A stretch of 64,000 bases of DNA. It comes from an uncultured virus (IMG/VR IMGVR_UViG_3300029305_011402). Lineage: Duplodnaviria > Heunggongvirae > Uroviricota > Caudoviricetes. How positions within the stretch are numbered: position 1 is the stretch's first letter; each line of letters opens with the position of its first letter. The stretch lies in the IMG/VR virus record IMGVR_UViG_3300029305_011402, one strand, 5' to 3'. The notes beneath the pieces are model-generated. The model searched no databases and was not told where the DNA came from. It saw nothing but the letters and a program-made list of their open reading frames with translations. Positions 1,534-62,360 of this stretch are shown here, in pieces. Made by a program: the position numbers and the translations under genes.

Positions 1534-3288
1534 CTATTCAACTGTGCAATTTAATTGACATTTTAAGCCTCTGAGATTTATTTCTCCAACTGCATTATTT
1601 CTTTGGACTGTTACACGAATTGCAACTTTCCAATAACTTACACCCTGTTCTTTAGCATTATTGCTAAATACGTGATTTAAGCGTGATTTTACTGCAGTTG
1701 TAATATCGTCCCATACAGGCAATCTGTCGTTTCTGTTGTTGCACGCCTCGACTTTTAAGATTGACTTGAACGGCATATCTAAATCTAACTCAACATTGAT
1801 TATACTTGGTTTTATCAATATATCTCCTGTTGGAGAATATTCAATTTCTAAAATACCTGCAGCCTTTGTAAAATGTTTCGTTTGAGTTACAGTAGAGCCA
1901 TTATCGTCTATTACAACAATTTTTATGTAATTATCTCCTGCAGGCAATTCTGCCCATTGTTCATTTGTTAGTGAAAGAGTATTTTGTACTCCACTTGCTG
2001 CAGAATATTCTCTTAATAGCGTTGAATTTAGATATTCTTTTACTGTTATGTTAATATCGTCGCCGTCATAAACTGCGTAATTGTAAGAGAAATCGTAAAG
2101 CACTTCGCCTAAATTTGAATTATCGCCCGAAATAAATGGAGGGTAGTTGTCTAAAACAACTCTTGTTTCAGAGGTAGAATAATCTGACTCTAAACCATTT
2201 CCGTCGCTTGCCTTAATTCTGTATTGCAATGTTTGAGTGTCCTGAGTTACGCTGTCAACGTATGTTAATTCGTTTCCTCTATAAATTTCAACAAACGTGC
2301 CGCCGTTTACGCTACGTTCAAGAACATACTCTGACGCATTATTTACTTTTGTCCAAGATATTGCAGCAATACCTCCGACTATTCCACCCGTTTCGTTTGT
2401 TGGCTCGCAATAAATTTCCTCTTGTACGCTAATAGTTGGTGTAGAAATACTTGCCCCACCCTCTCCGAGTTCTAAGACGTAGCAACCGTCCCCGTCAACA
2501 CTTTCAGATACCAGAATATCAGAACTCAAGTTACAAAGCGGACGCACGCCACGGTAACCGCCGCACGCAAAGTTGCCGTTCAAACCACCGCCCGAGCTGA
2601 CGCCGCGAACATAGCACGAGTTCGACGAGTCAGGAGTTCTTAGCCACCAAATGCGTGCTGCTCCTGCAGAAACCGAATAGTCACTATTTGCTGCTGCATA
2701 ATCTGAGACGTATGCAATTCTACAGTCGTTTGTATTAGCACTAAATAGCGAAAGTAAAGAGCCCTCTGTTATGCTGTTTTCTGCCTGTCCAAAAACCTCT
2801 GCTTTCGACGCAAGGAAGAATTTACGTACTATAGTTTCGTAAGAACCTCCGTCTGTTACAGTATTAAGTGCAACTTTTAAGGTTGTGTCCATAAGGGCAG
2901 CAACAAACGCTGTATTAAAACCATTTAAAAAGCCTGCATCATTTGCATAGGCGTTATAATTTGTAACGCTTGTTGAATCGGGTGCTTGGTCTGCATCGTG
3001 TCTTGGAGTGTACCATTGTCCCTCTGCAGCCTCAGAATTTAACCATAAGTCAATGTTTGAAACAGAATATTTATTATTTCCGTTATTTATTCTATTGCTG
3101 TCTGCATTGTTTGGCTCTTTAGCATCAAAACACCTTAGTAATATAATTTTTTCAGTAATCAGAGTCGTTGAGTTTGCAGGGTAATCTGCGTGGTCCTTAT
3201 CTGCCTTAAGAAAAATTATATCTCCCATTTTTGAGTGTGGAATTTTAATTTTGCTGCCAACTGCCAAACTTCCTAATGTAATTGACAT
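1534..3288 (-). CDS. DGR target protein 1: N-terminal DUF6273/C-type-lectin-like variable domain plus Fn3/Ig-like C-terminal domains (probable virion adhesin or receptor-binding protein)
   Basis: WWLRTP...GVRPLCNL motif containing VR1; Fn3-like ISWTKV...YVLERSVNGG...YRIKA; start overlaps the RT stop (TAATG). Confidence 0.88.
   Translation of the reverse strand: MSITLGSLAVGSKIKIPHSKMGDIIFLKADKDHADYPANSTTLITEKIILLRCFDAKEPNNADSNRINNGNNKYSVSNIDLWLNSEAAEGQWYTPRHDADQAPDSTSVTNYNAYANDAGFLNGFNTAFVAALMDTTLKVALNTVTDGGSYETIVRKFFLASKAEVFGQAENSITEGSLLSLFSANTNDCRIAYVSDYAAANSDYSVSAGAARIWWLRTPDSSNSCYVRGVSSGGGLNGNFACGGYRGVRPLCNLSSDILVSESVDGDGCYVLELGEGGASISTPTISVQEEIYCEPTNETGGIVGGIAAISWTKVNNASEYVLERSVNGGTFVEIYRGNELTYVDSVTQDTQTLQYRIKASDGNGLESDYSTSETRVVLDNYPPFISGDNSNLGEVLYDFSYNYAVYDGDDINITVKEYLNSTLLREYSAASGVQNTLSLTNEQWAELPAGDNYIKIVVIDDNGSTVTQTKHFTKAAGILEIEYSPTGDILIKPSIINVELDLDMPFKSILKVEACNNRNDRLPVWDDITTAVKSRLNHVFSNNAKEQGVSYWKVAIRVTVQRNNAVGEINLRGLKCQLNCTVE
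2534..2636 (-). repeat. DGR variable repeat VR1
   Basis: 103-bp ungapped match to TR; 19 mismatches, all at TR adenines on the coding strand (14 A>G, 4 A>T, 1 A>C). Confidence 0.97.
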
Positions 3289-4361
3289 TACTGCTTTTCC
3301 TCCTTTTTGAAAAGACTGTTATATAATTTGTCCATTTTTCTTATTAAATGGTAACAATTTCCACGTTTTGCGTGTCCTTTCCAACTTTGGTATGAACACT
3401 CAATACGCTCTATCGGCAGTTTTCCTTGTTTATTTAAAATATAAAACTTCTTTAGTCTTCTTCTCATTTTTGATTTTGAAGAACGTCTTAACTTACTAAT
3501 AACTTTGCCGCTATCTGTAAGATAAGTGTGGAAACCAAGAAAATCAATTCCGTTCTTAAGGGGAGAAATACAAGTTTTCGAGTTAAGTTCGAGCCCGAGC
3601 CTACTTACTTCCTTAATAATCTCCGTCAGGCAATACTTTAAATATTCCTTGTCCTTGTGTATTAAGTAAAAATCGTCCATATATCTTCCATAAAATTTAA
3701 TTCCTAATTTCTCTTTAATAAAATGGTCCAAATCACTTAAATACAACAGAGCAAAAAGTTGGGAAGATTGATTTCCTATTGGTATTCCTATATTGCCCTC
3801 AGTGCTATCTATAATCATATCAAGAAGATTGAGGGTCTTCGAGCAAGAAAAATATTTACGCAGTTTTTCTTTTAAAATAGTGTGGTTAATGTTATAAAAA
3901 TACTTTCTTATATCGCACTTTAAAACCCACCCGTCTGCAGATTTATTTATAACAAAATACTTTCTCATAAACTTGCTCATTCTTCCTAAGCCGAGTTTAG
4001 TTCCTTTTCCTATTTGAGATGCGTAATTGTCATAGATAAATGTTTTCGAGAGTGTTGGTTCGAGAATATTATCGCATAATGCGTGTTGTACCACTTTGTC
4101 TTTATAACTATTGCTCATAACTATTCTTTCTTTTGGCTCATACACCTTAAACACATTGTATTCTGACAAAGTATACGTTCCTTTTCGCAGTTGCTCTCCA
4201 AGCAACAAAACAGCCTCCATAGCATTTATTTCAAAGTTTATAGCAGCCTGTTTCCAACGTTTGCCGCAACGTGCTTTTTTGTATGCCTTATACATACTTT
4301 CCAATTCAGATGCGTCAATAAAATCTTGCATATAATTAAAACTCCTTACTGCTTTTAGCAT
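3288..4361 (-). CDS. DGR reverse transcriptase
   Basis: 357 aa; RYMDDF catalytic motif, GIPIGNQSSQLFA (DGR-type SQ motif), LKCDIRKYF, DFLGF; no maturase or endonuclease domain; next to TR and avd. Confidence 0.96.
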   Translation of the reverse strand: MLKAVRSFNYMQDFIDASELESMYKAYKKARCGKRWKQAAINFEINAMEAVLLLGEQLRKGTYTLSEYNVFKVYEPKERIVMSNSYKDKVVQHALCDNILEPTLSKTFIYDNYASQIGKGTKLGLGRMSKFMRKYFVINKSADGWVLKCDIRKYFYNINHTILKEKLRKYFSCSKTLNLLDMIIDSTEGNIGIPIGNQSSQLFALLYLSDLDHFIKEKLGIKFYGRYMDDFYLIHKDKEYLKYCLTEIIKEVSRLGLELNSKTCISPLKNGIDFLGFHTYLTDSGKVISKLRRSSKSKMRRRLKKFYILNKQGKLPIERIECSYQSWKGHAKRGNCYHLIRKMDKLYNSLFKKEEKQ

Positions 4362-4486: not shown

Positions 4487-4589
4487 CAAAGCGGACGCAC
4501 GCCATTGTTACCGTTGTACGCATTGTTGTTGTTCAAACTACCGTTCGAGTTGACGTTGCGAACATTGTACGAGTTCGACGAGTTAGGAG
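4487..4589 (-). ncRNA. DGR template repeat (TR)
   Basis: Intergenic between avd and RT. Coding-sense reading PNSSNSYNVRNVNSNGSLNNNNAYNGNNGVRPL has 13 AAY codons. Matches VR1 and VR2 except at adenines. Confidence 0.97.
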
Positions 4590-4612: not shown

Positions 4613-5011
4613 TTAACGTTTTTTATCGTTGTTTCTCCAAGTTGCTGTCATTTTCTTAACTTCAACAACCAACTTTACCCAATAAGCAACTGCTTTTGAG
4701 TCAAGTGTTATACTTTTTAGATTGTACGAGAGTTCAATAAGTGTATTAAGCAATTTGCACAATACAATTACTTTTTGTTGACAATCAAAGCGTCGTTGTC
4801 TTTCTTTAGCATCTGCTAAATTGCACTCGCTTGCTAACACTAAATTTTCATAAATATCAATACAATAATTTTCAATTCTTGCACCTATTGAAAAACGGTA
4901 TTTCTTAGGGAAATTATTTGTATTCGCCGTCTTGTTAAAACTATGGTCCATAAGGTTTTTAGCCTTAACAATTACAGCCATATCGTTTTGAGAACGTTCA
5001 TTTACATTCAT
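4613..5011 (-). CDS. avd: Accessory variability determinant (Avd-like four-helix bundle)
   Basis: 132 aa; FPKKYRFSIGARI...W...EVKKM...W pattern; directly upstream of TR. Confidence 0.88.
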   Translation of the reverse strand: MNVNERSQNDMAVIVKAKNLMDHSFNKTANTNNFPKKYRFSIGARIENYCIDIYENLVLASECNLADAKERQRRFDCQQKVIVLCKLLNTLIELSYNLKSITLDSKAVAYWVKLVVEVKKMTATWRNNDKKR

Positions 5012-26038: not shown

Positions 26039-27978
26039 TGTTTACCTCCACCAATTTGCGACATTAAGTAATTTGAATAGTCTTTTCGGTTTTGTACTTC
26101 TGCTTTTAAGCCCTCGTTTTCGGCTTGCAGAAGTGCCATTTGTTCTTGACGCTGTATTTCTCCTTTTATTCTCTCAACGTTATCGTGAGCCCAAGGGTAA
26201 TGTGCGTTCTCCATATTTTGCCAAAAGATAAGCAAAGTGTAAATAGAGTCTGTTGGTCCATAAGCCCCTGAAGTAAAGTTCGCTCTATTTTCTTGCCAAA
26301 GCGTTTCTCTTGACTTTTCAATATCAATAGTTGCGTCTGCAGCAAATAAATATTCGTCGTTATAGTAATATTCGCCCGATATATCTCTTTCAATAAAATC
26401 ATAACGATTAAATATTCTGTTTTGAAGTCTGCCTTGAGAATCTTTATAAACGCTTGGTCTTGGTTCGTCTGCATAGGCAAGATAATATTCAAATATAATT
26501 TTATCTATTTCTGCGTAAGCAGCGTTTTTCATTTGACGTTTACTATCAAGACGTCCTGCAGCCTGATTAACCTGTATTTGTTTTGCTTTTCCACTTTGAG
26601 CACTTGAGTCGTATTGTCCTTGATAACTGTCTGTAATTCCTAAAATACGCTTTGCTTGGTCGTACAGTCTTTCAGACTGAGCAATATCTCTTGAAATATC
26701 TACTTGCAAATCAATTCTTCCAAAAAGTTTATAATTTGCTTGACTCGCCCTAAATACTTTTTTAAATATAGAGTTGTCTAAATCTCCACTAAAGGTATCT
26801 GGAACAATAGGGTAAACGCCTCCACCGAATAACTTTTCAGCAATTCTGCTTTCAATCTTATTGATGCCTTGTTGTTGTGGTCTTATAAACTCACAGTCTG
26901 ACTGTCCTAAAAGACTGTCCTCCTCAGAAGTGTTTTTTCTGATAACAATAGGAAATGTTTTAGGAGTATAGAAAGGCAATTTTGTCTTTTCCATTTTAGG
27001 CACTAAAGCGTCTGCCATAATAGGAACAGCAACTCCGTTTAAATCTTCTAACGCAACCTCTCCATTTTCTAAAACAACTTGTCTTTTAACTGTTTCCATA
27101 ACAACTTGTCCGTTTTCTATAACTTCACTCATTGCAGGAATAACTGTGCCGTCAGAGCAAACTATATCTCTATCTAACTCCTCGTAATCTTCGTTTACAA
27201 GTTCATATTTTGGCTTTTCGCAATTACACAATTCTTCACGCTTGCCACAAACCTTGCAGATTCTGCGTTTGCGTGCATAGTAATCTGTAATGTCGGACAG
27301 TTCTGTGTCTGCACTCCAAATATATTGACAAACTTTGTCGTTGTCGTCTTTGTAATAACAAACATACAGAGTCGCCGTCTTGTCGTCAGCACTTTCTGTA
27401 GAGTCTGTTTCTTCTACTGTTTCAGGAGTTACGCCATATTTGCGTATAATGTCCTCTTTTGTTGTTTCAAATGAAATAAAGCAGTATTCCATTTCCTGCA
27501 CGTCATAAATATTTGGTTGCCCCGTAAACTTCTTTGGACTCAAACAGGTGACTTTAGCATCGCCCACAGTATTATGTGTGACAATCGAGTTGTCCCACTC
27601 TACAAGCCAAACAGAGCCACCATAAATAGGGTTATATCTTTCGTCTATGTCATTTTGTTTCTCAAAAGGTAATTCGTTCCTTTTGTTTCTTAGCAAAGTT
27701 TCAATGTTCTTTGCGTTGCGTTCGTTTCTATCACTAAACATTTTAGGAGTAACAGACGGGTTAGGTAAATAACTTGTTACTTGACTCTCTACGAGTTCGT
27801 AAGTAATATTTCTAACTTGTTTTGCCTCCTCGTCAGAATTATCAATTTTTCTGCTGCCTTTATATTGCTCAATGTGTTGCTCAAGTTTTTCGTATTTTTC
27901 TTCAGCAAAACTTCGAGCCTCTCTATAAAGGTTTTGAAAGAACGCCAATTTACTTGAATTTTCAATTTCTATTTTCAT
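26035..27978 (-). CDS. Portal protein
   Basis: 647 aa directly after TerL; GITDSYQGQ...AQSGKA..IQ..QA motif of P22-like portals. Confidence 0.85.
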   Translation of the reverse strand: MKIEIENSSKLAFFQNLYREARSFAEEKYEKLEQHIEQYKGSRKIDNSDEEAKQVRNITYELVESQVTSYLPNPSVTPKMFSDRNERNAKNIETLLRNKRNELPFEKQNDIDERYNPIYGGSVWLVEWDNSIVTHNTVGDAKVTCLSPKKFTGQPNIYDVQEMEYCFISFETTKEDIIRKYGVTPETVEETDSTESADDKTATLYVCYYKDDNDKVCQYIWSADTELSDITDYYARKRRICKVCGKREELCNCEKPKYELVNEDYEELDRDIVCSDGTVIPAMSEVIENGQVVMETVKRQVVLENGEVALEDLNGVAVPIMADALVPKMEKTKLPFYTPKTFPIVIRKNTSEEDSLLGQSDCEFIRPQQQGINKIESRIAEKLFGGGVYPIVPDTFSGDLDNSIFKKVFRASQANYKLFGRIDLQVDISRDIAQSERLYDQAKRILGITDSYQGQYDSSAQSGKAKQIQVNQAAGRLDSKRQMKNAAYAEIDKIIFEYYLAYADEPRPSVYKDSQGRLQNRIFNRYDFIERDISGEYYYNDEYLFAADATIDIEKSRETLWQENRANFTSGAYGPTDSIYTLLIFWQNMENAHYPWAHDNVERIKGEIQRQEQMALLQAENEGLKAEVQNRKDYSNYLMSQIGGGKQ

Positions 27979-41518: not shown

Positions 41519-42169
41519 TTATTCGCATACTTCAACTTTGGTTTCAGGTATCAGAGCACAAAGCGGACGCACGCCAAGGCTACCGTTGCACGCATAGCTG
41601 TGGCTCAAACTACCGTTCGAGTTGACGCTGCGAACAAGATGCTCATAAACCAAACTGTCAGCAGTTAATGTCCACCACCAATCACTTGCGTTTGGTATAT
41701 GTTTCCTGTATTTTCTGTATTCCTCGCAAGAAATCAAAGAAATGTAATCAAAGCAACTGCCGTAATCTGTAAGCCCGTCGTCTGTAGTTAAATCTCTTTT
41801 AAATTCAACCAAGTCATATTTATTGATTTTTTCTAACTCTTTAAAGCCCTTATGTAAGTTGTCGTCATTAAAATTGTTTAATTCTTCTCTTAAGGTTGAC
41901 TCTTTCCAGTTATTGCGATTGTCGGAATCAAAAGCCCAATCACACAATCTGTCTTTTGCAAATATCAAAACCCTGTCAACCTTTTTGTCTAAAACAACCC
42001 ACTCAATACCTGCGTATTTAATAAAAGAACCCACCTCAGCATTTTCAGCCTCAATTATTGCTCGTTCTTCAATAAAAAACTTTTTTGCCAAATCTTCTCC
42101 GACAATTTCTGCAATAAGAGCCTCTGCCTCTTGTGGGTTCGCATTTTTTAATTTTTCAAATCTATTCAT
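41519..42169 (-). CDS. DGR target protein 2 (DUF6273-like, stand-alone, early region)
   Basis: 216 aa; EWVVLD...NNWKESTLR..LN...WWWTLT...GVRPLC; C-terminal VR2. Confidence 0.88.
   Translation of the reverse strand: MNRFEKLKNANPQEAEALIAEIVGEDLAKKFFIEERAIIEAENAEVGSFIKYAGIEWVVLDKKVDRVLIFAKDRLCDWAFDSDNRNNWKESTLREELNNFNDDNLHKGFKELEKINKYDLVEFKRDLTTDDGLTDYGSCFDYISLISCEEYRKYRKHIPNASDWWWTLTADSLVYEHLVRSVNSNGSLSHSYACNGSLGVRPLCALIPETKVEVCE
41559..41636 (-). repeat. DGR variable repeat VR2 (remote)
   Basis: 78-bp ungapped match to TR 4487-4564; 9 mismatches, all at TR adenines (5 A>G, 2 A>T, 2 A>C). Confidence 0.95.
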
Positions 42170-42179
42170 AATTTTCCTC

Positions 42180-42470
42180 CTATTTCTCTTGTGAATATTT
42201 TTTATAAATCTCTTGTTTTTCTTGACGTGCCTGTGTTGTGGGTGCATCTTTTAGTTGTGGGTTTTTTGCTTGCACCTTTCTTCTTGCACGCATAATTGAC
42301 TTAAAACTTGGCAAATCTTTTCTCTTTACTATCTGGCTAAAGGGAATATTTACGTCAATTCCAAATCTTTTCACAACACCTAATATCAAGTCATAATCAT
42401 TTGTTCTTGCAGAGTAGTTGTTTTCCAACTCCTCTTTAACACACTTTTCTATGTTTAAAAGATGTTTCAT
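42180..42470 (-). CDS. Phage hypothetical protein
   Basis: LPSFKSIMRARRKVQ motif, GGAGG RBS. Confidence 0.65.
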   Translation of the reverse strand: MKHLLNIEKCVKEELENNYSARTNDYDLILGVVKRFGIDVNIPFSQIVKRKDLPSFKSIMRARRKVQAKNPQLKDAPTTQARQEKQEIYKKYSQEK

Positions 42471-42482
42471 ATTTCCTCCTGA

Positions 42483-42659
42483 TTATGACGTTTCTAAGTA
42501 TTTCTTAACTGCAAGTCTGATTATGTCGCTAACACAGTAATTTGAGCCGTTCTTTTTAGTTAACTCAGCGGCAAGTTCCTCACATTTTCGCTTGTCTTCA
42601 GCCGAATTAAAGTAAAAACCAACATAACGCTCTTTTCTGTCTTGGTTCTTATCTTTCAT
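42483..42659 (-). CDS. 58-aa putative ribbon-helix-helix DNA-binding protein (not in ORF track), first gene of the early operon
   Basis: MKDKNQDRKERYVGFYFNSAEDKRKCEELAAELTKKNGSNYCVSDIIRLAVKKYLETS; GGAGG RBS. Confidence 0.65.
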   Translation of the reverse strand: MKDKNQDRKERYVGFYFNSAEDKRKCEELAAELTKKNGSNYCVSDIIRLAVKKYLETS

Positions 42660-42889
42660 ACTTTTTCCTCCATAAAAAATAGGCTTGCCAGTAACGACAA
42701 ACCTATAAAAAATAAGGACGTGTCATTTACTAACACGTCTATGATAACATTACACAATTTTAGTAATTAAGAAGTTTATTGTTTCTCAAGAGCCAATTTT
42801 GCAATTTTAATTTACAAATTGATAAAACACTTTACAAAACAAAATGTATTTGCTAAAATGTTTGTGTTTTAATAAAACATGCAAATGCG

Positions 42890-46546: not shown

Positions 46547-47926
46547 TTATTTTAATGAATTCATTCTTGCCTCTATTACTTTTTCAGCCTTTTTTATCCA
46601 ATAGATTTCTTCTTCTTGTTCTAAACCTATATTGTAATATGATGCTAAAATTGCTAATGTTAAATTAGGGTTAAAAGAAAGCAATTTCGCCTTATTTCTA
46701 ACATATAGTTCACTAATAATTTTTAATCTTGCCTGTCTGCTACCTAAGTGAATTTGACAATGACAATTAGGACAAAGTGGAACAATATTATTGGGAATAT
46801 CTAAGTTTATTGAGCTATCAAAATAATACTCCTGTTGTCTATTCATTGGAACAATATGATGACCTTCTACATAATTATTTAATTCAACGGATTCAAAATA
46901 AAAATGTTTCGAATCATTGCAATCACACAAATATTTAGCTTTCTCCAATACACTATCTCTAATTTTTTTCTGTGTTTTAAATCTCTTTCTGCCATTACTA
47001 TCGACACCTCTTTCTGGTTTACGATGTATATCATTAATATTATCTAACTCATCATCACTTTCTATTACATCATCATCTATAGGAACAATCATGTGCCCTT
47101 GTTTTAATAATGATGAATTTGCATATTCTATAAATTTGCTAAGATTTTTAAATTGATTATCTAACTTAGATAGTCTTTTTGTTATTTGAGATATATCATA
47201 TTTAAAATCATTTCCACCTGCAAACATAGCTGTTAAAAATCTAAAGCAAAAAGATTTTATAAACTGACCTTCAAGTTGTTTTAATTCACAGTTGCCATAA
47301 AGTGTATTATTGTCCAATCTTAAATATTGAACTTGGGAATTAGCCTTTGATTTTTTCTGTAAAAAGTCAGACATTTCTAAATATTCAGTTAATGTGTTAA
47401 ACTTTGTATCAGTAGACAAATTCAAAATAGGGAAAAACGGAATCACATCAAAATTTAAAGTGTTAAGACTATTTACATCCATCTGCATTTTATTATAGTC
47501 TATATCAACTTTGTTATTTGCATTTATTTTAGAGGTTAATAAAACTATTTTTTTACACTTATCATCTAATAAAAATGCAATATTTTCTTCCATTTGAGTG
47601 CAAATGGTAGGCATTAAGCTTTGTTCTATAATTACATCGCCCAATTTTGAATCTATTGGAGTAAAGAATACTACAATCTTATCATAATGCAAATTATCTC
47701 CTTCTATAAAACCACTATATTGACTAAAAGAATTTTTTTCTTCTTTTGTTCTAGCAAATCTATATAAGTCAATCTCTAAAAATGTAAATTCATCATTTAA
47801 TTTTGCAATAACTTTCTGCAAGAAATCATCGGCTGATTTAACACCTAAAGATTTTAATATTGCCAGATTTTTATCATTACCTAAAGATTTATAAAATGAC
47901 TCTTGAACAACCAATGTTTGACTCAT
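46547..47926 (-). CDS. Putative restriction endonuclease with C-terminal HNH domain
   Basis: YVEGHHIVPM...LD..NNIVPLCPNCHCQIH; coupled (TAATG) to the methyltransferase. Confidence 0.8.
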   Translation of the reverse strand: MSQTLVVQESFYKSLGNDKNLAILKSLGVKSADDFLQKVIAKLNDEFTFLEIDLYRFARTKEEKNSFSQYSGFIEGDNLHYDKIVVFFTPIDSKLGDVIIEQSLMPTICTQMEENIAFLLDDKCKKIVLLTSKINANNKVDIDYNKMQMDVNSLNTLNFDVIPFFPILNLSTDTKFNTLTEYLEMSDFLQKKSKANSQVQYLRLDNNTLYGNCELKQLEGQFIKSFCFRFLTAMFAGGNDFKYDISQITKRLSKLDNQFKNLSKFIEYANSSLLKQGHMIVPIDDDVIESDDELDNINDIHRKPERGVDSNGRKRFKTQKKIRDSVLEKAKYLCDCNDSKHFYFESVELNNYVEGHHIVPMNRQQEYYFDSSINLDIPNNIVPLCPNCHCQIHLGSRQARLKIISELYVRNKAKLLSFNPNLTLAILASYYNIGLEQEEEIYWIKKAEKVIEARMNSLK

Positions 47927-49782
47927 TATTCATCCCTCCAATCGTAATTGGTAATTAAAACTTCATCTCTACTATTTTTTGCACCTACATTGTCAATGTT
48001 GGTGATTAAGAAATTGTGTGTTTTAACCCATTCGGCAAGTAGGTAATTAGTATTATCATTATGATATATAACATTAGACAATACAAATTTAAACCCCTTT
48101 TCATGTAACATAGTTATATATTCTAAAAGTTTTGTTTCTTCATCTGCATTCCAACCTATAAAACCTCTTTTTCCATCGTTATAAGTAGCACTTGTTATAA
48201 AATAGGGTGGGTCAAAATAAAATACAGTATTTTTATCTAAATTTGATATATCAATATTTCTATATGAATCATTATATAATTCATAATTACTTGTTTTAGG
48301 AATAAAATTGATGATTCTATCAGTTAAAGTACTATTATAAGAACAATTACCGACAGGAGAATTAAATTCAAGTTTTGTATTAAATCTCATTTGGTTTTGA
48401 AAACAATACATATGTAATACAAAAAGTTGATAAATATCTTTTGTTTTATTATAACTATTTCTTAAATTTAAATAGGATTCTTTATTTCCTTTTTCAAGTT
48501 TAAATTCTTTAATAATACTTTCAACTTTTTTGATTATAATCTCACCATTTTCTTTAAGCAATGTACTAATAATATTAAATGTATGTGGTAAAAACTCATT
48601 ATATATCACTTTATCGGCAACAATATTTACACCAACATTAAAAGCACCACCCATTATATCAATAAATGCTGAGATGTGTTTTGGAAGAACTTTTGTAATT
48701 TCATTAAAAATAGAATATTTACTTCCCGTATAATTCAATGGCGACTTAATTATTTCCAAATCTTTTTTAAAGTATATTAAAACTTCTTTCAATTCATTGC
48801 CTTTTTGACTAGCCCTAATATTTTTATACTCTCTAAAAGGAAATCCATAAACTTTCACTTCTTTATTTACTGCAAACCTTTTTGCTAAGTTTGTTAATTC
48901 TTCTATCGACACTAAACCCTGACTGCTATAACTAACCAAAATATGATTAAAGTTTGCTTGTCTAAACAGATCTTCAAAGTTTAACAATGCTTGTTGTTTT
49001 CTTGTATATTTTGATTTTATAGTCGTTTCTTTTCTTCTTCCTGTGATACCACCAATAACTGGATAATCATATTTAGAAATGCTTTCCAATATGTGATAAG
49101 CGGAGTTATAGTCTGTCACTGTATAAGGCGGGTCAATATATAAAATATTACCGCTTATTTTTCTTAATAATTCGTTACTATCTTTATTGTAAATTGTGTT
49201 ACTATAAATTTTATTTGTTTTGTTGATACTAATAGGTTGAATCCTAAAATCTTTTAATGCTCTATTATCCCAATTTTTCAAATAAGCTTCATATGTTCCA
49301 GTAGTATTAGAAACACCCATAACACTCTCAATCAATGAAGCTATTAAAAAATTCCTTTCTTTTAAATCGATAATAAAGTCCTTATATAATTCTTCAATTT
49401 CGATACGCATACCATCTATTTTGATTGAATTTTGCTCTGTAAAAAATTTTCTATTGCCCTTTGGGGAATAATTGTTAGTTATAAAATACTGAGAATCTGG
49501 AACATAATTTTTACTATTTAAGTATGAAAAAGGATCAACTCCAAACTTTTTAGTAAAATCTTTAAATTGAGGGACATCATTATTTTCAAGCTTTGCTCTA
49601 TTAACAATACTTAAGGAATGTAAAAAATCATTAGCAATAATTTCAAATCTATCTTTAAAATAATCACCAACAGACCCAGACCCTGCAAATAAATCACAAA
49701 AAACACCTTCAGTAATATTGTTGTCTAACATTACTGAATTAATATTTTCTAACATTCTTGTTTTATTCCCTAAATATCGCAT
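47926..49782 (-). CDS. Fused two-domain N6-adenine DNA methyltransferase (FokI-like plus Dam-like)
   Basis: RYLGNK/DLFAGSG/YIDPPY followed by KSPLNYTGSK/DIMGG/YFDPPY. Confidence 0.92.
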   Translation of the reverse strand: MRYLGNKTRMLENINSVMLDNNITEGVFCDLFAGSGSVGDYFKDRFEIIANDFLHSLSIVNRAKLENNDVPQFKDFTKKFGVDPFSYLNSKNYVPDSQYFITNNYSPKGNRKFFTEQNSIKIDGMRIEIEELYKDFIIDLKERNFLIASLIESVMGVSNTTGTYEAYLKNWDNRALKDFRIQPISINKTNKIYSNTIYNKDSNELLRKISGNILYIDPPYTVTDYNSAYHILESISKYDYPVIGGITGRRKETTIKSKYTRKQQALLNFEDLFRQANFNHILVSYSSQGLVSIEELTNLAKRFAVNKEVKVYGFPFREYKNIRASQKGNELKEVLIYFKKDLEIIKSPLNYTGSKYSIFNEITKVLPKHISAFIDIMGGAFNVGVNIVADKVIYNEFLPHTFNIISTLLKENGEIIIKKVESIIKEFKLEKGNKESYLNLRNSYNKTKDIYQLFVLHMYCFQNQMRFNTKLEFNSPVGNCSYNSTLTDRIINFIPKTSNYELYNDSYRNIDISNLDKNTVFYFDPPYFITSATYNDGKRGFIGWNADEETKLLEYITMLHEKGFKFVLSNVIYHNDNTNYLLAEWVKTHNFLITNIDNVGAKNSRDEVLITNYDWRDE

Positions 49783-49869
49783 AAATTATCCTCTGTTAAA
49801 TATTCGAACTTATTATAACATACTTTTGATAAAAATGTGCTACTATATCTAAACTTTTTAAAAATTTTT

Positions 49870-49957
49870 ATAATTTGGCATTTAGGCGTGTGCTTGTTAT
49901 ATACAAGTGGTGTCGCTTCGCTCCACCAGACAAGCACACGTCTAAGTGCCAAATTAT
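49870..49957 (+). repeat. Long hairpin (REP-like) between divergent genes
   Basis: 28-bp arms ATAATTTGGCATTTAGGCGTGTGCTTGT and ACAAGCACACGTCTAAGTGCCAAATTAT, two mismatches (both G-U compatible on the + strand). Confidence 0.8.
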
Positions 49958-50033
49958 TTTTGTAATATACTATATTTTGCATCTAATTATTGTTTTTTTA
50001 TGTTATAATGTTATAGTAAATATGGAGAAAAGT

Positions 50034-50690
50034 ATGAAAATAGAAATTAAAACACATAGAAAAATTGATACTAATGAGCTTTTAGAGGATTTAAAAAATG
50101 TAGCAAATAAAATAGATAAACCCCCAACAATTGCTGAATATAATGAAAATGGGAAATTTGAGTCGACTGTATATATTAGAAGATTTGGAAGCTGGAACAA
50201 CTCTCTTTCAAAACTAGGAATGTCTTTAAATAATAAACAATGGTCAGAAAAAGAATTATTGACAAATATGGAAGATGTATGGAAATGTTTAGGTAAACAG
50301 CCATCTAGAAGAGATATGAACAACAAAAACATTTCAAAAATTTCTTCAGGAGCATATACTAGGTTTTATAAAAGTTGGACAGCGGCATTAAATCAATATG
50401 CTTTGTATTTAAATAATAAAGAAGAAGATCTTATATATAATTTTTCTAAATCAAAAAGTACAGTTAATGCTCATAAAACTTCAAGAGATATAAATCTTAG
50501 ATTACGATTTCAGGTTTTAAAAAGAGATAATTTTAAATGTTGTATGTGTGGGCGTTCTCCTGCTTCTACACCTGATTTAGAATTACATATTGACCACATA
50601 AAACCATATTCTAAAGGTGGAGAAACTGTAATTGAAAATTTACAGACACTTTGTAGTGATTGTAATTTAAGAAAAAGCAATTTAGAATAA
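50034..50690 (+). CDS. HNH endonuclease with N-terminal homing-endonuclease-associated repeats
   Basis: Two RFGSWN/RFYKSW repeats; LRFQVLKRDNFKC..CG...LHIDHI.P.SKGG....NLQTLC..CN..KS. Confidence 0.88.
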   Translation: MKIEIKTHRKIDTNELLEDLKNVANKIDKPPTIAEYNENGKFESTVYIRRFGSWNNSLSKLGMSLNNKQWSEKELLTNMEDVWKCLGKQPSRRDMNNKNISKISSGAYTRFYKSWTAALNQYALYLNNKEEDLIYNFSKSKSTVNAHKTSRDINLRLRFQVLKRDNFKCCMCGRSPASTPDLELHIDHIKPYSKGGETVIENLQTLCSDCNLRKSNLE

Positions 50691-51866: not shown

Positions 51867-52217
51867 TCACTCTTGTTTGGCATTGCTGTGTTTTTTTTGC
51901 TCTTTGGCTGAATTGGTGTCATCTGGTTTGATTGTTTCTTGCTGTTTGGCTGTTGTGTTATCGTCTCTTTGATTTGTTGGTATTTCTTTCAAAGTATCTT
52001 CTGTTGTTTGGTTGCTATTTTCCTGCCCAGTTTCTTTTGCTTTTGGCTTTTTGACAATGCCAAAAACAACCAAAACGCCACAAATTGACATTATGACTTC
52101 TTCTGCACCTTTTGCAGAAATCGAAACGCCACATGCTTTGCCAATGGCGACGACCAAAAGTCCAACTGCACCTGCAAGTGCTGTCCAAAATTTATACGAT
52201 TTGATTAGTTTTTTCAT
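51867..52217 (-). CDS. Holin-like membrane protein
   Basis: KS.KFW.AL...L...GIV..P two-TM pattern. Confidence 0.6.
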   Translation of the reverse strand: MKKLIKSYKFWTALAGAVGLLVVAIGKACGVSISAKGAEEVIMSICGVLVVFGIVKKPKAKETGQENSNQTTEDTLKEIPTNQRDDNTTAKQQETIKPDDTNSAKEQKKHSNAKQE

Positions 52218-52443
52218 TTTTGCTCCTTTTGACAGAAGGAATTTTTGTTAAACATTGTTTAATTTCCGAAACATCCTGTTTGATCTCGTCAACTGTGTTT
52301 AATTTTGTAGCCAATTTGTTAATAATATCTTGATATTTTATTTCTCGTTTGTGTGAGTCTTTTAATGTAAACGCAAGTAGCGCCACAAAAAGACAGGCAA
52401 AAATTCCATTAGATATCGCAATATTAAACACATCACTCCACAT
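52192..52443 (-). CDS. BhlA/UviB-like holin
   Basis: SNGIFACLFV.LL...LKDS.KRE.KYQ.II..L. Confidence 0.85.
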   Translation of the reverse strand: MWSDVFNIAISNGIFACLFVALLAFTLKDSHKREIKYQDIINKLATKLNTVDEIKQDVSEIKQCLTKIPSVKRSKNEKTNQIV

Positions 52444-52447
52444 AAAT

Positions 52448-53347
52448 TTAACCTTGCAATTGTTTTAAAAGTTTGTTGTAATAACTATTTCCCAAGTTCT
52501 CTTTGTAAATTGGATTGCTTGCAAGTTCTGCTAGAGCCTGGGCTTTATCCATTGCAGAAAAATGTTCTTTGGCAATTTCATATTTTTCTTCTTGTTTCAT
52601 CATATTTATGCCAATAAGACCTCTTTCGTACCTTTCGGCAAAATCCATTATTTGTTTATAATGTTTTTCGTCTTGCTCTGCATCAAATTCGGCTTGCTTT
52701 TCTGCAATTTGATTGTTGTATTTAATTACCTCTTGTTCTTCTTTTAAAATTGTTTCGTTTAGCGAATTAATTTTGTCTTGAAGTTTTACTGCATACTCTA
52801 TATTAAACGAATTTAAAGCATTAAGTTTTTCTTGCTCTAGTGAAGCCTTTTCGTCAGTTAAAGTCTTAATTTGTGCATCAGTTTTATTTGACAATTCTTT
52901 TAAATCGTCCAGCATACTATTGTCATACTCGCTTAACTTGTTGACAATAATTGACGAGCGTGCAAGCCCGCGTTTGATGGCATCATTTGACGCATCTTCC
53001 TTAACCTTTTCGTATGTATTTTGAATGGTTGCTTGCTTTTGCTGTTTTTCTTGGTTTGCTTGTTTTACGCTTTGGTCAATTTGCTCAGATTTGGTTTTAA
53101 AAGAATCTTCTATGCCCTGAAGCGAGTTGTTTTTATAACTTTCCAAACTGCTTTTTGCACTGCTTTCAACCTGCTCTATGCTTGGTTTTTCATACTCCAA
53201 TTCTTTAAGGTTTAACTCTTGCTTGTCACTTCTTATTTTATAGTTATCATCAACTTCTTGAAATTTTTCTAAAATTGACTTGGATTGTTCGGCTTGTTGT
53301 TTAACTTTTTTTGTTGTTTGTTCATCAACGTTAAATTGATACATCAT
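52448..53347 (-). CDS. Coiled-coil putative ejection/internal virion protein
   Basis: AIKRGLARSSI motif resembling LAEMGLSNSGY of 23861..26038; follows tail tubular B. Confidence 0.5.
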   Translation of the reverse strand: MMYQFNVDEQTTKKVKQQAEQSKSILEKFQEVDDNYKIRSDKQELNLKELEYEKPSIEQVESSAKSSLESYKNNSLQGIEDSFKTKSEQIDQSVKQANQEKQQKQATIQNTYEKVKEDASNDAIKRGLARSSIIVNKLSEYDNSMLDDLKELSNKTDAQIKTLTDEKASLEQEKLNALNSFNIEYAVKLQDKINSLNETILKEEQEVIKYNNQIAEKQAEFDAEQDEKHYKQIMDFAERYERGLIGINMMKQEEKYEIAKEHFSAMDKAQALAELASNPIYKENLGNSYYNKLLKQLQG

Positions 53348-53438
53348 TTTCTCCTTTTTTTAGGATTCTTTTTTTAATTCTATTTGTTAGCATTTTTAAC
53401 AAATCTTTGTTTATAATCATCACCATTTTAAAAGTCCT

Positions 53439-54941
53439 TTAGCTGTTTATTTCTACAATTATTTGTGGGCAAGAAATATGTATTTGTTCGGCAGAAGAAG
53501 TTTCAAAGCCCACTTCAATCTGCTCGCCCGACATATTAAGCAAAATTCTTTGCGAAGTATCTTTGCCCAAAACATTAAACTCTTTGGTTTGTTTTTCGGT
53601 TGCGATTTTTACTTTGCAATCGCTCTTGGTTTTTATTAAGCACTCTTTAATATGTTTAATTTTTGTTGGATAACCCATATTGCTTTTTGGACTAACCCAC
53701 TTTTTTGCAAGTGGCGTGCCAAAAACAATGCCAGTTTCATTTAACTCACCAAGTTTGCCAGCATGCTCACCATTAAAGCAAGCAACCACTTTGGTAAACT
53801 TTTCGTCATCCAAAACCAGCATACTCGCAATGTCAACACCACGAGTTATGCTTAAATCACCATTTGACAAATCAAGTTCAATAAGAGCATTGTTAACATA
53901 GCCCGCCTCATAATTTTCACAACCAACTTTTTCGCCGTCTGCAAAATTCAATCTGCAAGCAAGCAAAAATTTGTTGTTGTAATAAACTCCGCAAGCATTG
54001 TCATTTTCTACACCCTTAAACAAACTATCAATGCCAAGGTTTAGTTTTTGAGTAGAATAGCCGTCAAACGAATGTAAGCCATCACGAGCAAGTAGCAAAA
54101 TTTTGTTTCCGCAAACTGTTACCGTGTTACCGTAAAGTTTTACGCTTGAAACAAAAAGGTGCGAAACGCTAAAATCGGTTTGGTCGCCATAGGCCGAAAC
54201 CTTGCTCACACCATAATCTCTAAACACATAAACATAGTCGTTAAAAGAAACAACTTGAGCAAGCGCTCCGCGTTCGTCTTGCATTTCTATAAAGCCCCCA
54301 CTAGACAAATCTTGACTCCAATCGGTTGGGTCAAGGTTGGCGCTAAAAGCCAAACGATTACGCTCGCCACCAACAACTGCAAAAAGTCGTTCGTAGTGCA
54401 AACACATAGACTTAATATGTGGTGCATCTTCCACTTTTTCGCAAACATGATTTCTTGCATATTTCCAAACGCCATCACTCTCAGATGAAAAAATCATTGA
54501 GTCTACTGAATTTAGTTTGTAGTTTATTGCATTTGGAATGCTAGAAGATAGCACACTTTGTAAAATGGTTCTACAAAACGGAGAATCGTCATAAAACAAA
54601 CAAGTTTGAATATCGCCGTTTTCGCAATACATAACAAGTGCATGCGACGGCTTGTTTAAAGTGGTATCAAAATATTTATAGTGCCAAAGTTTTTTAACTG
54701 GCGAAGCTGGGGGAATTATTGTCCTGAAATTTTCATCATAAAAGTTTGGAAGTTGAAGTTCGCTAAAACCATAACCGTTGGTTAGCGCGCCCTTTTTAAC
54801 ATTAAAGTTGTATGACATTTTTGCCTGTTTATACGGAAGTAGCGACTCGTCAGTTTCGGTGTTCATACTTTTTTCAAAGTTGGTAAAATTGATTTTTGCA
54901 TTGGTGCTAGATTTTTTTAATTTTAAGTTTGGGTAAAACAT
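53439..54941 (-). CDS. Tail tubular protein B / stabilisation-like protein
   Basis: Beta-propeller-like, ~500 aa, after the adaptor gene. Confidence 0.65.
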   Translation of the reverse strand: MFYPNLKLKKSSTNAKINFTNFEKSMNTETDESLLPYKQAKMSYNFNVKKGALTNGYGFSELQLPNFYDENFRTIIPPASPVKKLWHYKYFDTTLNKPSHALVMYCENGDIQTCLFYDDSPFCRTILQSVLSSSIPNAINYKLNSVDSMIFSSESDGVWKYARNHVCEKVEDAPHIKSMCLHYERLFAVVGGERNRLAFSANLDPTDWSQDLSSGGFIEMQDERGALAQVVSFNDYVYVFRDYGVSKVSAYGDQTDFSVSHLFVSSVKLYGNTVTVCGNKILLLARDGLHSFDGYSTQKLNLGIDSLFKGVENDNACGVYYNNKFLLACRLNFADGEKVGCENYEAGYVNNALIELDLSNGDLSITRGVDIASMLVLDDEKFTKVVACFNGEHAGKLGELNETGIVFGTPLAKKWVSPKSNMGYPTKIKHIKECLIKTKSDCKVKIATEKQTKEFNVLGKDTSQRILLNMSGEQIEVGFETSSAEQIHISCPQIIVEINS

Positions 54942-55510
54942 TAAAACCACCCTCTTTTCTTTAACTTTATTTCACCCTTTTTTCTTTGTGCTTCTAGTAG
55001 TGCATTTTTATAGCGATGTTCCCACAAGGTTGCATCATCATAAAGCATTTCTAAAAAGCAATATTCACTAGCAACACCATAAGCAATAACCCTTGCCGAA
55101 AGTTTACTCGAAAAGTTTTCCGCATCACCTTCTAACGTTTGTTCATTTGGATATACCTTGTAAATAATCTCCACGCATTTTGCAAGGCATATCATTTTTT
55201 CGCCCAAAAGTTTATAGCGTACATTTTTACCACTTTTTGTTTTAACCGAAACAATTTCTTGAATTTTGTTGTCAATTTCATACAAGTTTACACTTCCGTC
55301 AGTTATTTCAACCGTTGCCGTTTTAAAAATTGGCAAATAATTGCTGGCAATTTCTTCTGTAACCATATTTACGCACATTAAAATTTTTCTTAAATCTTTT
55401 TGTAAATTTTCGGTCAATTCCTCTCCGTTTTCTTCAAAAAAAGAAGAATTTAATAGTTCTTCTTTTCCCAAATACACACAAACATTTTTAATTATTTCCT
55501 TTGTTTTCAC
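54941..55510 (-). CDS. Head-tail adaptor-like protein
   Basis: C-terminal IAYGVASEYC...W...Y helices; position. Confidence 0.6.
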   Translation of the reverse strand: MKTKEIIKNVCVYLGKEELLNSSFFEENGEELTENLQKDLRKILMCVNMVTEEIASNYLPIFKTATVEITDGSVNLYEIDNKIQEIVSVKTKSGKNVRYKLLGEKMICLAKCVEIIYKVYPNEQTLEGDAENFSSKLSARVIAYGVASEYCFLEMLYDDATLWEHRYKNALLEAQRKKGEIKLKKRGWF

Positions 55511-55820
55511 TTATTTTCTCCATTTGTTTTTGTATATTTTTTTGCTCATTTTTTAAAAGACGGGCATTGGACTCTTCTATTTCTCTTAAAAGCTCCTTGC
55601 GATTTTGAATTTCACTTTTTAAGGTGTATTCAATCATTCGCTCGTCAATTTGGTCAAAAGGAAAAGTCAAACAATAAACACTTGGTTTAAAGTTGTTTTC
55701 AAAAAGGTATAACATATATTTTTTAGATTTTAAGTTATAGTAAACCTCATATTTATTGTTCCACGCCTTTAGCCTTTGAATTATTCCCAGAGCATCACTA
55801 TTTACAATTATTTTTTCCAT
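55488..55820 (-). CDS. Phage-like hypothetical protein
   Basis: I..RLK...LD.R-type small protein downstream of the capsid gene. Confidence 0.55.
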   Translation of the reverse strand: MEKIIVNSDALGIIQRLKAWNNKYEVYYNLKSKKYMLYLFENNFKPSVYCLTFPFDQIDERMIEYTLKSEIQNRKELLREIEESNARLLKNEQKNIQKQMEKISENKGNN

Positions 55821-55961
55821 TTCCCGTCCTTTTAAAGTTGAGCTTTTGTACTTAAAGCAAATTTTAAGTTTTTTTAATGAATAACACTAAAATTACAAGT
55901 TTTTTAACAAAAACAATTTTGCAAGCAAAATTCAACCTACGGTTGTTTTGTAATTTTGTGT

Positions 55962-56183
55962 TTTTAGGCTTCGTCGCATTTAACCAAATGCCAATGCCTT
56001 GCATTGTCGCTTGGTTCTCATTTGACGTAATATCGCTTCGCGATTTTAGGCTTCGTCGCATTTAACCAAATGCCAATGCCCTGCATTGTCGCTTGGTTCT
56101 CATTTGACGTAATATCGCTTCGCGATTTTAGGCTTCGTCGCATTTAACCAAATGCCAATGCCCTGCATTGTCGCTTGGTTCTC
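55962..56183. repeat. 82-bp tandem repeat, ~2.7 copies, palindromic (REP-like) units
   Basis: AGGCTTCGTCGC recurs at 55966, 56048 and 56130; each unit has AACCAA..CAATGC/GCATTG..TTGGTT and ATCGC-ttc-GCGAT stems. Confidence 0.9.
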
Positions 56184-56228
56184 TGCTCCTTGTAATAATG
56201 AATAATGGCGGATAATTTTAAAATTATC

Positions 56229-56264
<36 letters not shown>

Positions 56265-56296
56265 AAACGCACTCGGCTTGCTTTATCGCTATGATT

Positions 56297-57490: not shown

Positions 57491-57494
57491 ATTT

Positions 57495-58166
57495 TTATCC
57501 TTTTAAGTTAAATAATTTCTCAACCATTTTTTTAGCGTCTTGCATAGTTGTTGGCGGAGTTTGTTTAACCACCGCAACACTCCCCTGACTGCCAATTATG
57601 GTTGGAGTTTTTGTTTTTTGTACATTCTTAAAATATTCTTCTAACACTTGTTTTTTTACTTCTTCACGATTCAAAATTTTTTCTGTTATGAAGTTTTGAT
57701 CGTTTGCCAAAGTATCGGGCTCGCGATAATTTTTTTGCATTACTCTAGCCCAAGCAAGTTCCAAGGCGTTGGGAGATTTTTGCAAATCTGGGTCCATTAA
57801 AATTTCGTTTGCAATATCTCCTGAATATTTTTGTGCCTCGGCATTGTTTGATAAAAAACTAGAAACATTGTCCTGCCACGATTCTTGCAAGTAAATCGGC
57901 TCTGTTTGTTTTTTATCTATTTGGTTAAGTTGAGAATTTTTGTCTTCTAATTCTTTTGACATCTCACTCAACTTTTGACACTTTCTTGTAAACTCTGCCT
58001 GCAAATTGTTATAGGCAGAAAGCAAACTTTCAGCGTCTTTAAATTTTCCAAGGGAGCCATCAGAGTTTTCCAAAAGAGTACCCTCTATATTATCTTCAAC
58101 AATTCCACTTTGTACATTTGGCAAAACTTCTTCTAGTTGTTCCCCTGATATTTTTTCTTCTTCCAT
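57495..58166 (-). CDS. Capsid scaffolding protein of cluster 2
   Basis: GKFKDAESLLSAYNNLQAEFTRKCQ motif; immediately upstream of the capsid gene. Confidence 0.75.
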   Translation of the reverse strand: MEEEKISGEQLEEVLPNVQSGIVEDNIEGTLLENSDGSLGKFKDAESLLSAYNNLQAEFTRKCQKLSEMSKELEDKNSQLNQIDKKQTEPIYLQESWQDNVSSFLSNNAEAQKYSGDIANEILMDPDLQKSPNALELAWARVMQKNYREPDTLANDQNFITEKILNREEVKKQVLEEYFKNVQKTKTPTIIGSQGSVAVVKQTPPTTMQDAKKMVEKLFNLKG

Positions 58167-58509
58167 TTTGTTCTCCTTTTTGTTATTACTTATTGTTTTT
58201 TTGTATTACTTTTTTAATGAAAAATGAATAATTAAAAACGAATAATTAATGACATATTTTAAATAATTATTAAAAAATTAATTATAAATCACCCCAAAAT
58301 TGTGTTAAAAAATATTTGCAAAACCCTGTTTTACAAATATTTACATTTTAAATTATTAAATATTATTTTTACCTTTATTTTAAAGGGAATATATTTATTT
58401 TAATTATTGTTTAATTATTTTTAATTAAATTGTTTTATTATTTTTTAATTAATAAATTATCCACCATTATTCACTATTCATTATTAATTAAAAATTACTG
58501 CAGTAATTT

Positions 58510-58848: not shown

Positions 58849-58861
58849 TTATAAATCCTTT

Positions 58862-59200: not shown

Positions 59201-59262
59201 TTTGCCTTATCTCCTATTAATGTGTTACATTTGAGTTTTCACCTTTAATTGCCATAAAGTTT

Positions 59263-60245: not shown

Positions 60246-60246
60246 A

Positions 60247-62315: not shown

Positions 62316-62349
<34 letters not shown>

Positions 62350-62360
62350 TTTAAAAACCA

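Follow-up and report, generated by a model that had tools for sequence, protein, structure and literature searches.

The 64,000-nucleotide stretch analyzed here (IMG/VR record IMGVR_UViG_3300029305_011402, from an uncultured virus of the Caudoviricetes) is termed the window and carries a diversity-generating retroelement (DGR) with a single template repeat (TR) and two variable repeats (VRs). VR1 lies in a large gene adjoining the cassette, and VR2 lies at the 3' end of a separate gene coding for 216 residues, termed the small target, which belongs to an operon of recombination and replication genes. Coordinates are those of the window throughout, and TR, VR1 and VR2 are all read on the − strand. 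The retroelement and its two targets comprise the following features, given with their Pfam and PHROG matches.

4487..4589, − strand: TR, the adenine-rich copy, on whose adenines the mismatches of VR1 and VR2 all fall
2534..2636, − strand: VR1, codons 218-252 of the 584-residue target, compared with TR over 103 nucleotides
41559..41636, − strand: VR2, 3' end of the small target gene, codons 178-204 of 216, compared with TR over 78 nucleotides
41559..41575, − strand: GC-rich 3' end of VR2, GGCGTGCGTCCGCTTTG, resembling an initiation of mutagenic homing (IMH) site, with the identical 17-mer at 2534-2550 (VR1) and 4487-4503 (TR)
4613..5011, − strand: Avd accessory gene, 132 residues, phrog_3206 "Avd protein of DGR" (1.7e-21)
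3288..4361, − strand: DGR reverse transcriptase (RT), 357 residues, phrog_1423 (1.4e-121) and Pfam RVT_1 (6e-16)
1534..3288, − strand: VR1 target, 584 residues, tentaclin-like, DUF6273 (3.3e-31) and phrog_10993 "Hoc-like head decoration" (5.2e-130)
41519..42169, − strand: small target, 216 residues, Pfam DUF6273 (8.3e-07, 29.5 bits, cut-off 23.5) and phrog_9958 (1.8e-49)

The cassette is complete, with RT, Avd and TR, and the window shows these hallmarks of a DGR: a DGR-type RT adjoining TR, an Avd, TR/VR pairs with differences confined to adenines, and a target ORF with its VR 3'-terminally placed. The RT translation contains the motifs IGNQSSQ and YMDD, the form [LIV]GxxxSQ being a hallmark of DGR RTs. 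On the Avd protein the Pfam family bAvd scores 6.4e-05 and 23.9 bits, under its cut-off of 40. The Pfam DUF6273 match of the VR1 target spans residues 39-255 with VR1 at 218-252 and is followed by a long C-terminal part, and the phrog_10993 match is full-length.

One Template Repeat with Two Variable Repeats

A repeat search of the window identifies one family of three members (D3) at 2534-2636, 4487-4589 and 41559-41661, and alignment on the − strand shows the middle copy to be adenine-rich with the other two diverging from it. Anchored on the shared 17-mer GGCGTGCGTCCGCTTTG, VR2 aligns with TR over 78 ungapped nucleotides with 9 mismatches, 9/9 of them at TR adenines. As 22 A are present among those 78 TR nucleotides, this placement of the mismatches has a hypergeometric p of 2.7e-6. 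Two further bases upstream in VR2 are also mismatches at A sites, which brings the match to 80 nucleotides, and beyond this point the homology fades, with 12 mismatches (11 at A) over 82 nucleotides and 18 mismatches (12 at A) over 90 nucleotides. For VR1 the corresponding figures are 19/19 mismatches at A over 103 nucleotides and 19/20 over 104 nucleotides. All three repeats end in GGCGTGCGTCCGCTTTG, followed by T in both VRs (TGT, Cys) and by G in TR (TGG), and the AAC/AAT codons of TR are in frame with both VRs. The divergence point between VR and TR is identical in three related genomes (G008, G002 and G003). The shared GC-rich 3' end of TR and the VRs resembles an IMH, a function that is putative here.

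The same arrangement of one TR with two VRs and adenine-only mismatches is present in these three relatives (14/14 and 14/14 in G008, 10/10 and 10/10 in G002, 18/18 and 12/12 in G003), each of which has a large target adjacent to the cassette and a small stand-alone target 9-20 kb off. A fourth genome (G004) gives a partial RT match, and an A-biased TR/VR pair is not detected in it. The alignments reproduce what the original prediction had claimed for the repeats, namely the 78-base pair match with all 9 mismatches at adenines, the 3' end in common with VR1 and its T in place of the G of TR, the use by VR2 of the 3' three-quarters of TR (78-80 of 103 nucleotides), and the existence of a second, non-adjacent target of a single TR. 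As judged from the sequence, the status of VR2 as a DGR target is secure.

Diversification of VR2

Within the VR, close relatives of the small target differ almost exclusively at TR-A positions. A protein that is 95% identical to it (P0003) has 10 residue differences, 2 outside the VR (I50V and V121I) and 8 within it (N183Y, N185S, H190S, S191R, C194F, N195I, S197Y and L198F). All 8 fall at adenine-containing TR codons and all 8 codon changes can be reached via TR-adenine changes alone. In a sublineage with a length of 218 residues, 24 cluster representatives are near-identical outside the VR columns VRxVxSxGxLxxxxAxxGxxGV. Four DNA alleles of this sublineage (L003, L002, L026 and L027) differ pairwise at 10-17 of 88 VR positions, with at most one VR difference per pair off the TR-A sites, and at roughly 10-16 positions per pair in the remaining stretch of about 570 nucleotides.

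Metagenomic variation was compared over 40700-42700 in contigs (not reads) from four animal-gut runs of four studies. Run X1 contains two different 113-nucleotide contigs over 41547-41659 with 12 and 10 differences, and the four differences listed for this run (41578, 41601, 41605 and 41616) are all at TR-A sites. The contigs of runs X2, X3 and X4 end at or beside VR2, leaving gaps. Adenine-specific variation at VR2, by which the original prediction proposed to judge its reading, is found in P0003, in the four DNA alleles and in the X1 contigs. On these sequences VR2 is currently diversified in nature, not frozen.

Distance between the Cassette and VR2

The phage genes of the window occupy the − strand up to about 42.7 kb and extend leftward past position 1; the next gene is ileS at 43174. 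A relative with 67% identity is present on a differently permuted contig of 42.8 kb (G008, the same contig as L003), in which the gene order is Avd, TR, RT, the VR1 target, three small genes, a stretch of about 3.4 kb with two membrane proteins and an rve-type transposase, the 58- and 96-residue open reading frames (ORFs) that open the operon, the small target, and then YqaJ onward. The distance from TR to VR2 in this genome is about 9 kb. In a metagenome-assembled genome (L026) the related prophage likewise ends just upstream of the 58-residue ORF. Judged by this gene order, the 37-kb separation of TR and VR2 is found only in the integrated, linear prophage form and is an effect of prophage linearization. 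The 37-kb remoteness originally described consequently stands along the linear prophage and not along the phage's own genome, for which a shorter distance had itself been anticipated.

Two unrelated two-target DGR phages have a transposase gene that separates the lysis end from the early operon, at 8129-9172 in L003 (rve-type) and at 25320-26357 in phage nd12 (IS30 family).

Fold and Family of the Small Target

The DUF6273 match of the small target covers the C-terminal half of the family model. On a simple hydropathy scale (not SignalP) the best 19-residue window has a value of 0.84, the N terminus is hydrophilic, and neither a transmembrane segment nor a signal-like N terminus is seen, in line with the original description. 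The AlphaFold2 (AF2) model, calculated from an alignment of 80 sequences, has a predicted local distance difference test score (pLDDT) of 94.3 and a predicted template modeling score (pTM) of 0.82, and is composed of three short N-terminal helices followed by a single mixed α/β domain. Strands 178-182 and 188-192 form a C-terminal β-hairpin and fall inside the VR2 residues 178-204.

Structural comparison of the model with 48,161 chains using VIA-align gives one top match by a wide margin, 9qa6_A (Z 17.3, 171 residues aligned, 20% identity), the N-terminal DUF6273 domain of an IgA peptidase from Thomasclavelia ramosa (Foldseek E 2.5e-07, profile E 0.0047). The next matches are Legionella Lcl-C (8q4e, Z 9.6), TvpA (2y3c, Z 7.6) and a Bacteroides ovatus fimbrial protein (4eps, Z 6.9), and animal C-type lectin domains follow by the dozen at about Z 6. 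A Z of 6-8 taken alone counts as weak under the tool's own guidance. Because the VIA-align list is consistent and agrees with the DUF6273 match, the model supports a C-type-lectin-type fold with the VR on a β-hairpin, the structure prediction for which the original prediction had called. Foldseek against the PDB has 9qa6 as its one significant match, and it took VIA-align to assign the C-lectin fold. Profile searching in the PDB gives no sequence match to Mtd, the DGR target of phage BPP-1, or to TvpA, and Mtd is not among the 50 structural matches listed by VIA-align, an absence that carries little weight by itself. Three cysteines of the small target (C139, C148 and C204) are at least 90% conserved.

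The sole close structural relative of the phage protein is a domain of a gut-bacterial IgA protease (Z 17.3). A protein search recovers 240 relatives of the small target with lengths of 118-378 residues, and a dedicated search of the range of 379-2000 residues finds no longer fused relatives, which is weak evidence. One homologue (P0117, 286 residues) has a C-terminal MazG-like domain (precomputed PF03819); it is a single member on a 1.3-kb contig and may be a true fusion or a read-through of neighboring genes, and it gives a faint hint of a cytoplasmic life for the small target.

Operon and Gene Context

The small target begins with an ATG at 42169 with GGAGG 7 nucleotides ahead, and its homologues begin at the same methionine. 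Two genes precede it in a closely spaced series on the − strand, whose order is 58-residue ORF, 96-residue ORF, small target, 71-residue ORF, YqaJ, DUF1351, RecT, RusA, a replication-initiator-like gene and SSB. The originally described stand-alone DUF6273-like protein of 216 residues, third in an early operon upstream of YqaJ and RecT, is therefore recovered in the Pfam and PHROG matches and in the ORF order. The genes on either side of the small target are as follows.

42180..42659, − strand: two small ORFs (58 and 96 residues) opening the operon, the same order being kept in L003, L026, L027 and L002
37026..41528, − strand: downstream operon genes from the 71-residue ORF to SSB, defined by Pfam matches and stop/start overlaps

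Stop and start codons overlap at the junction of the small target with the 71-residue ORF and at the junction of the latter with YqaJ. The Pfam matches of the downstream genes are YqaJ (9.5e-26), DUF1351 (1.8e-32), RecT (4.2e-38), RusA (9.2e-29), Lin1244_N (1.5e-06) and SSB (4.5e-20). The 58- and 96-residue ORFs have no family above threshold in Pfam and PHROG searches. Scanning for promoters near the start of the operon yields 7 sites, which is within the shuffled expectation of 5.9 +/- 2.5, and terminator-like sites on the − strand are located upstream of the operon at 42679-42739. Rfam at gathering thresholds gives 0 matches in the window and ARAGORN gives 0 tRNAs.

The 96-residue ORF was also considered as Gad1, the anti-defense protein against Gabija, from a weak match (E 0.0029, 17.6 bits, cut-off 27). 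This identity is rejected and the match is taken as chance because it is not reproduced in 4/4 homologues.

The context of the small target was surveyed by a profile scan of viral contigs in which 80/180 relatives were kept, 75 with a complete target ORF of 165-265 residues, and these 75 loci form 13 clusters at an identity of at least 60%. Up to five ORFs per side were annotated at 15 representative loci (139 proteins), each cluster being represented by one or two of them; L102, L069 and L082, as second representatives, were omitted, as were L033 and L032 (window lineage, already annotated). Genes of DNA/RNA metabolism or of the lysogeny switch lie no more than five ORFs from the small target in 12/13 clusters, the remaining cluster (L068) having only genes without assigned function within that distance. 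No cluster has structural genes on both sides of the small target within five ORFs per side.

Five further genomes have comparable neighborhoods. The second target (tgt2) of phage nd4 follows a lysis/switch region and precedes an exonuclease-like "DNA polymerase III" gene, SSB and DnaC, with a similar arrangement in nd12. FP_Toutatis gp24 is placed between DNA methyltransferases and replication-initiator/antiterminator-Q genes. The small target of G002 has PAPS-reductase-like and radical-SAM genes on one side and a replication initiator on the other, and that of G003 is flanked by a PAPS-reductase-like gene and, on the other side, by a polymerase-exonuclease subunit. Taken together, the annotated sequences indicate a consistent pattern across the family, in which small targets are encoded among early DNA-metabolism genes and not among structural genes.

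An RT is present inside the 8-kb flank at 26/75 loci, and a TR matching the VR of the small target is present in the locus at 21/75 (18/38 in cluster 1 and 3/4 in cluster 3). At those 21 loci the cassette is composed of two tandem small targets, then Avd, TR and RT. In another phage group, as in L098 (7401-10212; also in L067 and L102), two tandem phrog_9958 targets share one TR with 9/9 and 12/12 mismatches at A, and the L098 cassette sits between RNase H and a RecT-like gene.

Genes resembling peptidoglycan hydrolases (L-Ala-D-Glu peptidase, transglycosylase, endolysin-like and 3D domain) recur a few ORFs from the small target in the early operons of several lineages (L086 5010-5624; L046 5163-5837; L052 1319-2020; L015 9892-10485; FP_Toutatis gp16).

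Proposed Mechanism and Role of the Small Target

The mechanism proposed for the window follows the BPP-1 paradigm. TR, located between avd and the RT gene, would be transcribed and reverse-transcribed with adenine-specific errors, and the resulting cDNA would replace either VR1 in the tentaclin-like gene or VR2, with homing presumably steered by the common GC-rich 3' end and upstream homology. As the homology of VR2 stops after 78-80 nucleotides, only the 3' three-quarters of TR would be copied at this site. Up to about 13 codons in residues 178-204 could be rewritten, producing a hypervariable ligand-binding surface. The overlapping stop and start codons suggest that translation of the small target is coupled to that of the YqaJ, RecT, RusA and replication genes of the early operon. 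The whole explanation, in which VR2 is a genuine and active second target of a single DGR, diversified by this mechanism in a protein of the small-target class encoded in an early operon, is considered probable.

The role of the protein is a separate matter. An early, non-structural role is favored by the conserved setting among early DNA-metabolism genes and by the apparent coupling of translation, and by a modest preference the small target would be made early and act within, or from, the infected cell, rather than belong to the components encoded in the structural module. Presence on the virion as a receptor-binding protein is possible and considerably less probable, and some other activity is improbable.

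Several points weigh against an intracellular role and against parts of the mechanism. The position of a gene neither proves the timing of its expression nor rules out packaging of its product in the virion, and a C-type-lectin fold combined with conserved cysteines is typical for binders that work outside the cell. The published opinion on the class is a receptor-binding role. The census rests on one or two representatives per cluster and PHROG categories are annotations, not experiments, and a tail-like gene is found on one side of the small target in L059 (5 ORFs upstream) and L045 (3 ORFs upstream). A hairpin like that of BPP-1 is not evident 3' of the VRs: DNA folding of the 3' flanks of VR1 and VR2 in four genomes gives no hairpin beyond shuffled expectation (-4.7 for the VR2 flank of the window compared with -6.7 +/- 2.1 for shuffles), and the cis requirements of homing are only presumed here.

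The best surviving alternative is that the small target is a virion receptor-binding protein with an Mtd-like function, encoded outside the late region and put on the tail or capsid, so that two adhesins widen the host range. This is the hypothesis published for the class in the available portions of PMC10743442 and 10.1101/2024.10.15.618418, and it accords with a C-lectin fold bearing the VR on a β-hairpin as in known adhesin targets, with the conserved cysteines, and with a TR held in common with a Hoc-like/tentaclin protein. It is difficult to reconcile with the gene never being placed inside a structural module in 13 clusters and five other genomes, with the apparent translational coupling to recombination genes in the window, and with a model that has no Mtd-type β-prism or β-sandwich attachment domain and no Mtd match in the profile search of the PDB. 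A virion adhesin is accordingly regarded as rather unlikely.

The small target might instead be a lysogenic-conversion or superinfection-exclusion factor made from the prophage and serving the lysogen, for example by binding proteins of incoming competitor phages or environmental ligands. Its gene lies near the prophage end, the peptidoglycan-hydrolase-like genes recur beside it, and a preprint describes, in the part available, a Mushuvirus DGR that is active in lysogeny with tentaclin in the bacterial secretome (10.64898/2026.05.08.723808). Those Mushuvirus data concern tentaclin and not the small target, which is inside a co-oriented lytic early operon behind two small ORFs, has no promoter signal of its own above shuffles (the 7 sites noted above) and, on the simple hydropathy scale, is without a signal peptide or transmembrane segment, making such a factor distinctly improbable. 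The weakest alternative, that VR2 is a frozen relic of past retrohoming or duplication and is no longer diversified in the window phage, agrees with an IMG/VR fragment (L001) having an identical small target gene (0 differences over 651 nucleotides), which possibly comes from an assembly identical or closely similar to that of the window, and is largely refuted, to the point of being very improbable, by the 8 VR codons of P0003 that are each reachable by TR-adenine changes, by the two VR2 variants in run X1 and by the intact cassette.

For the early, non-structural role favored here, a more specific and speculative extension is that the small DUF6273 proteins of phrog_9958 are, family-wide, early cytoplasmic binders diversified by DGRs, an "intracellular antibody" repertoire against variable proteins of the host or of rival phages, such as defense components. 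Such binders would be the phage counterpart of the antigen sensors, likewise diversified by DGRs, that have been proposed in bacterial conflict systems. This extension is tentative and carries odds no better than those of the virion adhesin, and for defense components the lone hint, the Gad1-like score of the upstream ORF, failed in 4/4 homologues. The original prediction of an intracellular early protein binding host defense is in this way strengthened in its early, non-structural part by the conserved early-module position, and as a whole it stays an inference.

Phage DGRs are usually seen as host-range devices that diversify virion adhesins. The window provides a clean and active example with two targets and shows that a "remote" target can stem from prophage linearization. 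Should the small targets prove to act within the infected cell, DGRs would have uses in phages beyond adsorption, perhaps in counter-defense, and the reading of thousands of gut-phage DGR targets of unknown function would change. The early-module position makes the function of second DGR targets a testable question, the same class being present in culturable Faecalibacterium phages.

Other Features of the Window

In the DGR phage, a 3094-residue ORF at 14332-23616 between portal-side and head-like genes matches ART-PolyVal, the ADP-ribosyltransferase of polyvalent proteins (1.1e-49). The area beside ileS at 46547-50690 encodes a 459-residue HNH-like protein, a 618-residue protein with a D12 N6-adenine methyltransferase (4.6e-60) and a 271-residue HNH endonuclease with homing-endonuclease repeats, and may be a restriction-modification or mobile island between two phage elements.

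The second, different phage-like element occupies 51867-64000, is entirely on the − strand, and most of its ORFs are without a family. It contains two holin genes at 51867-52443 (Phage_holin_1 and BhlA), a DUF7934 protein and a P22-like portal at 60247-62118 (3.9e-26). Several repeats are found in this element: three 82-nucleotide tandem copies at 55955-56200, three copies of roughly 340 nucleotides at 58507-59421 that are 352-401 nucleotides apart and correspond to three paralogous ORFs of 112-114 residues, and runs of the 7-nucleotide unit ATTCACT at 56212-56267 and 62300-62355.

Comparison with Known Systems

The novelty implied for the second target in the original prediction does not hold, as the class is published (PMC10743442; 10.1101/2024.10.15.618418; PMC11792537) and non-adjacent targets were catalogued in 2017 (PMC5758913). 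In the available portions of that catalogue (Wu et al.), DGRs associated with phages are often accompanied by two targets in a single prophage, one adjacent and the other non-adjacent but within 50 kb, and for the non-adjacent phage targets those portions give no functional or module context. Phages nd4 and nd12 encode a tentaclin (N-terminal DUF6273 and Ig-like domains) together with a small tgt2 having DUF6273 only, whose VR2, placed 3'-terminally, is the shorter of the two VRs (Baykov et al. 2023, PMC10743442, as excerpted). Toutatisvirus has a second VR gene in its core genome, 17,480 nucleotides from TR on the circular map (10.1101/2024.10.15.618418), and the Faecalibacterium phages Lelie and CP11 are described with "large and small" DUF6273 targets (PMC11792537), again in partial text. 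A receptor-binding role is a guess for the class in the portions seen of all three of these sources (PMC10743442, 10.1101/2024.10.15.618418, PMC11792537).

The small target shares the features of the tgt2 class: DUF6273 and phrog_9958 matches, a length in the range of about 170-300 residues, no other domain, a VR on the C-terminal hairpin and a TR in common with a tentaclin-like first target. By tblastn it is 40-42% identical to the nd4 and nd12 tgt2 genes, whose products likewise have a single C-lectin domain with short helices, a 3' VR forming a β-hairpin, a VR2 shorter than VR1 and a tentaclin partner. Those genes are about 10-12 kb from the RT amid early/replication genes. A noticeable difference is that nd4 and nd12 are small myoviruses, whereas the phage of the window belongs to another lineage with a P22/SU10-like portal and the 3094-residue polyvalent protein. 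FP_Toutatis gp24 is similarly a DUF6273-only second target of one TR with about 215 residues and is distant from its cassette; it is not reached from the window protein by tblastn at E 1e-5, and the likeness there is by published description.

More distant systems share the scaffold and differ in setting. BPP-1 Mtd has a C-terminal VR on a C-lectin-type fold with TR, Avd, RT and an IMH-like end, but is a trimeric tail-fiber-tip protein of 381 residues with β-prism and β-sandwich domains, encoded beside its cassette (PMC10743442 and PMC5758913, both in part). The window protein in contrast has only three short helices before the C-lectin domain, is not adjacent to the cassette and is placed in an early operon. 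Treponema denticola TvpA has a C-lectin-type VR scaffold as does the small target and, unlike it, is a lipoprotein of the bacterial surface. The T. ramosa IgA peptidase ThomasA (PDB code 9qa6) is a secreted protease anchored to the cell wall whose DUF6273 domain is not a DGR target, and this N-terminal domain is given as a domain of unknown function in the available text of PMC12402451.

The pairing of a tentaclin with a small DUF6273-only second target is an already published design, of which the window, with its tentaclin-like VR1 target, is a further example in a different phage lineage. None of the words early, replication, intracellular or cytoplasm occurs in PMC10743442, which does not discuss an early-module position, and this position of the small targets is the addition made here to the accounts of the class cited above.

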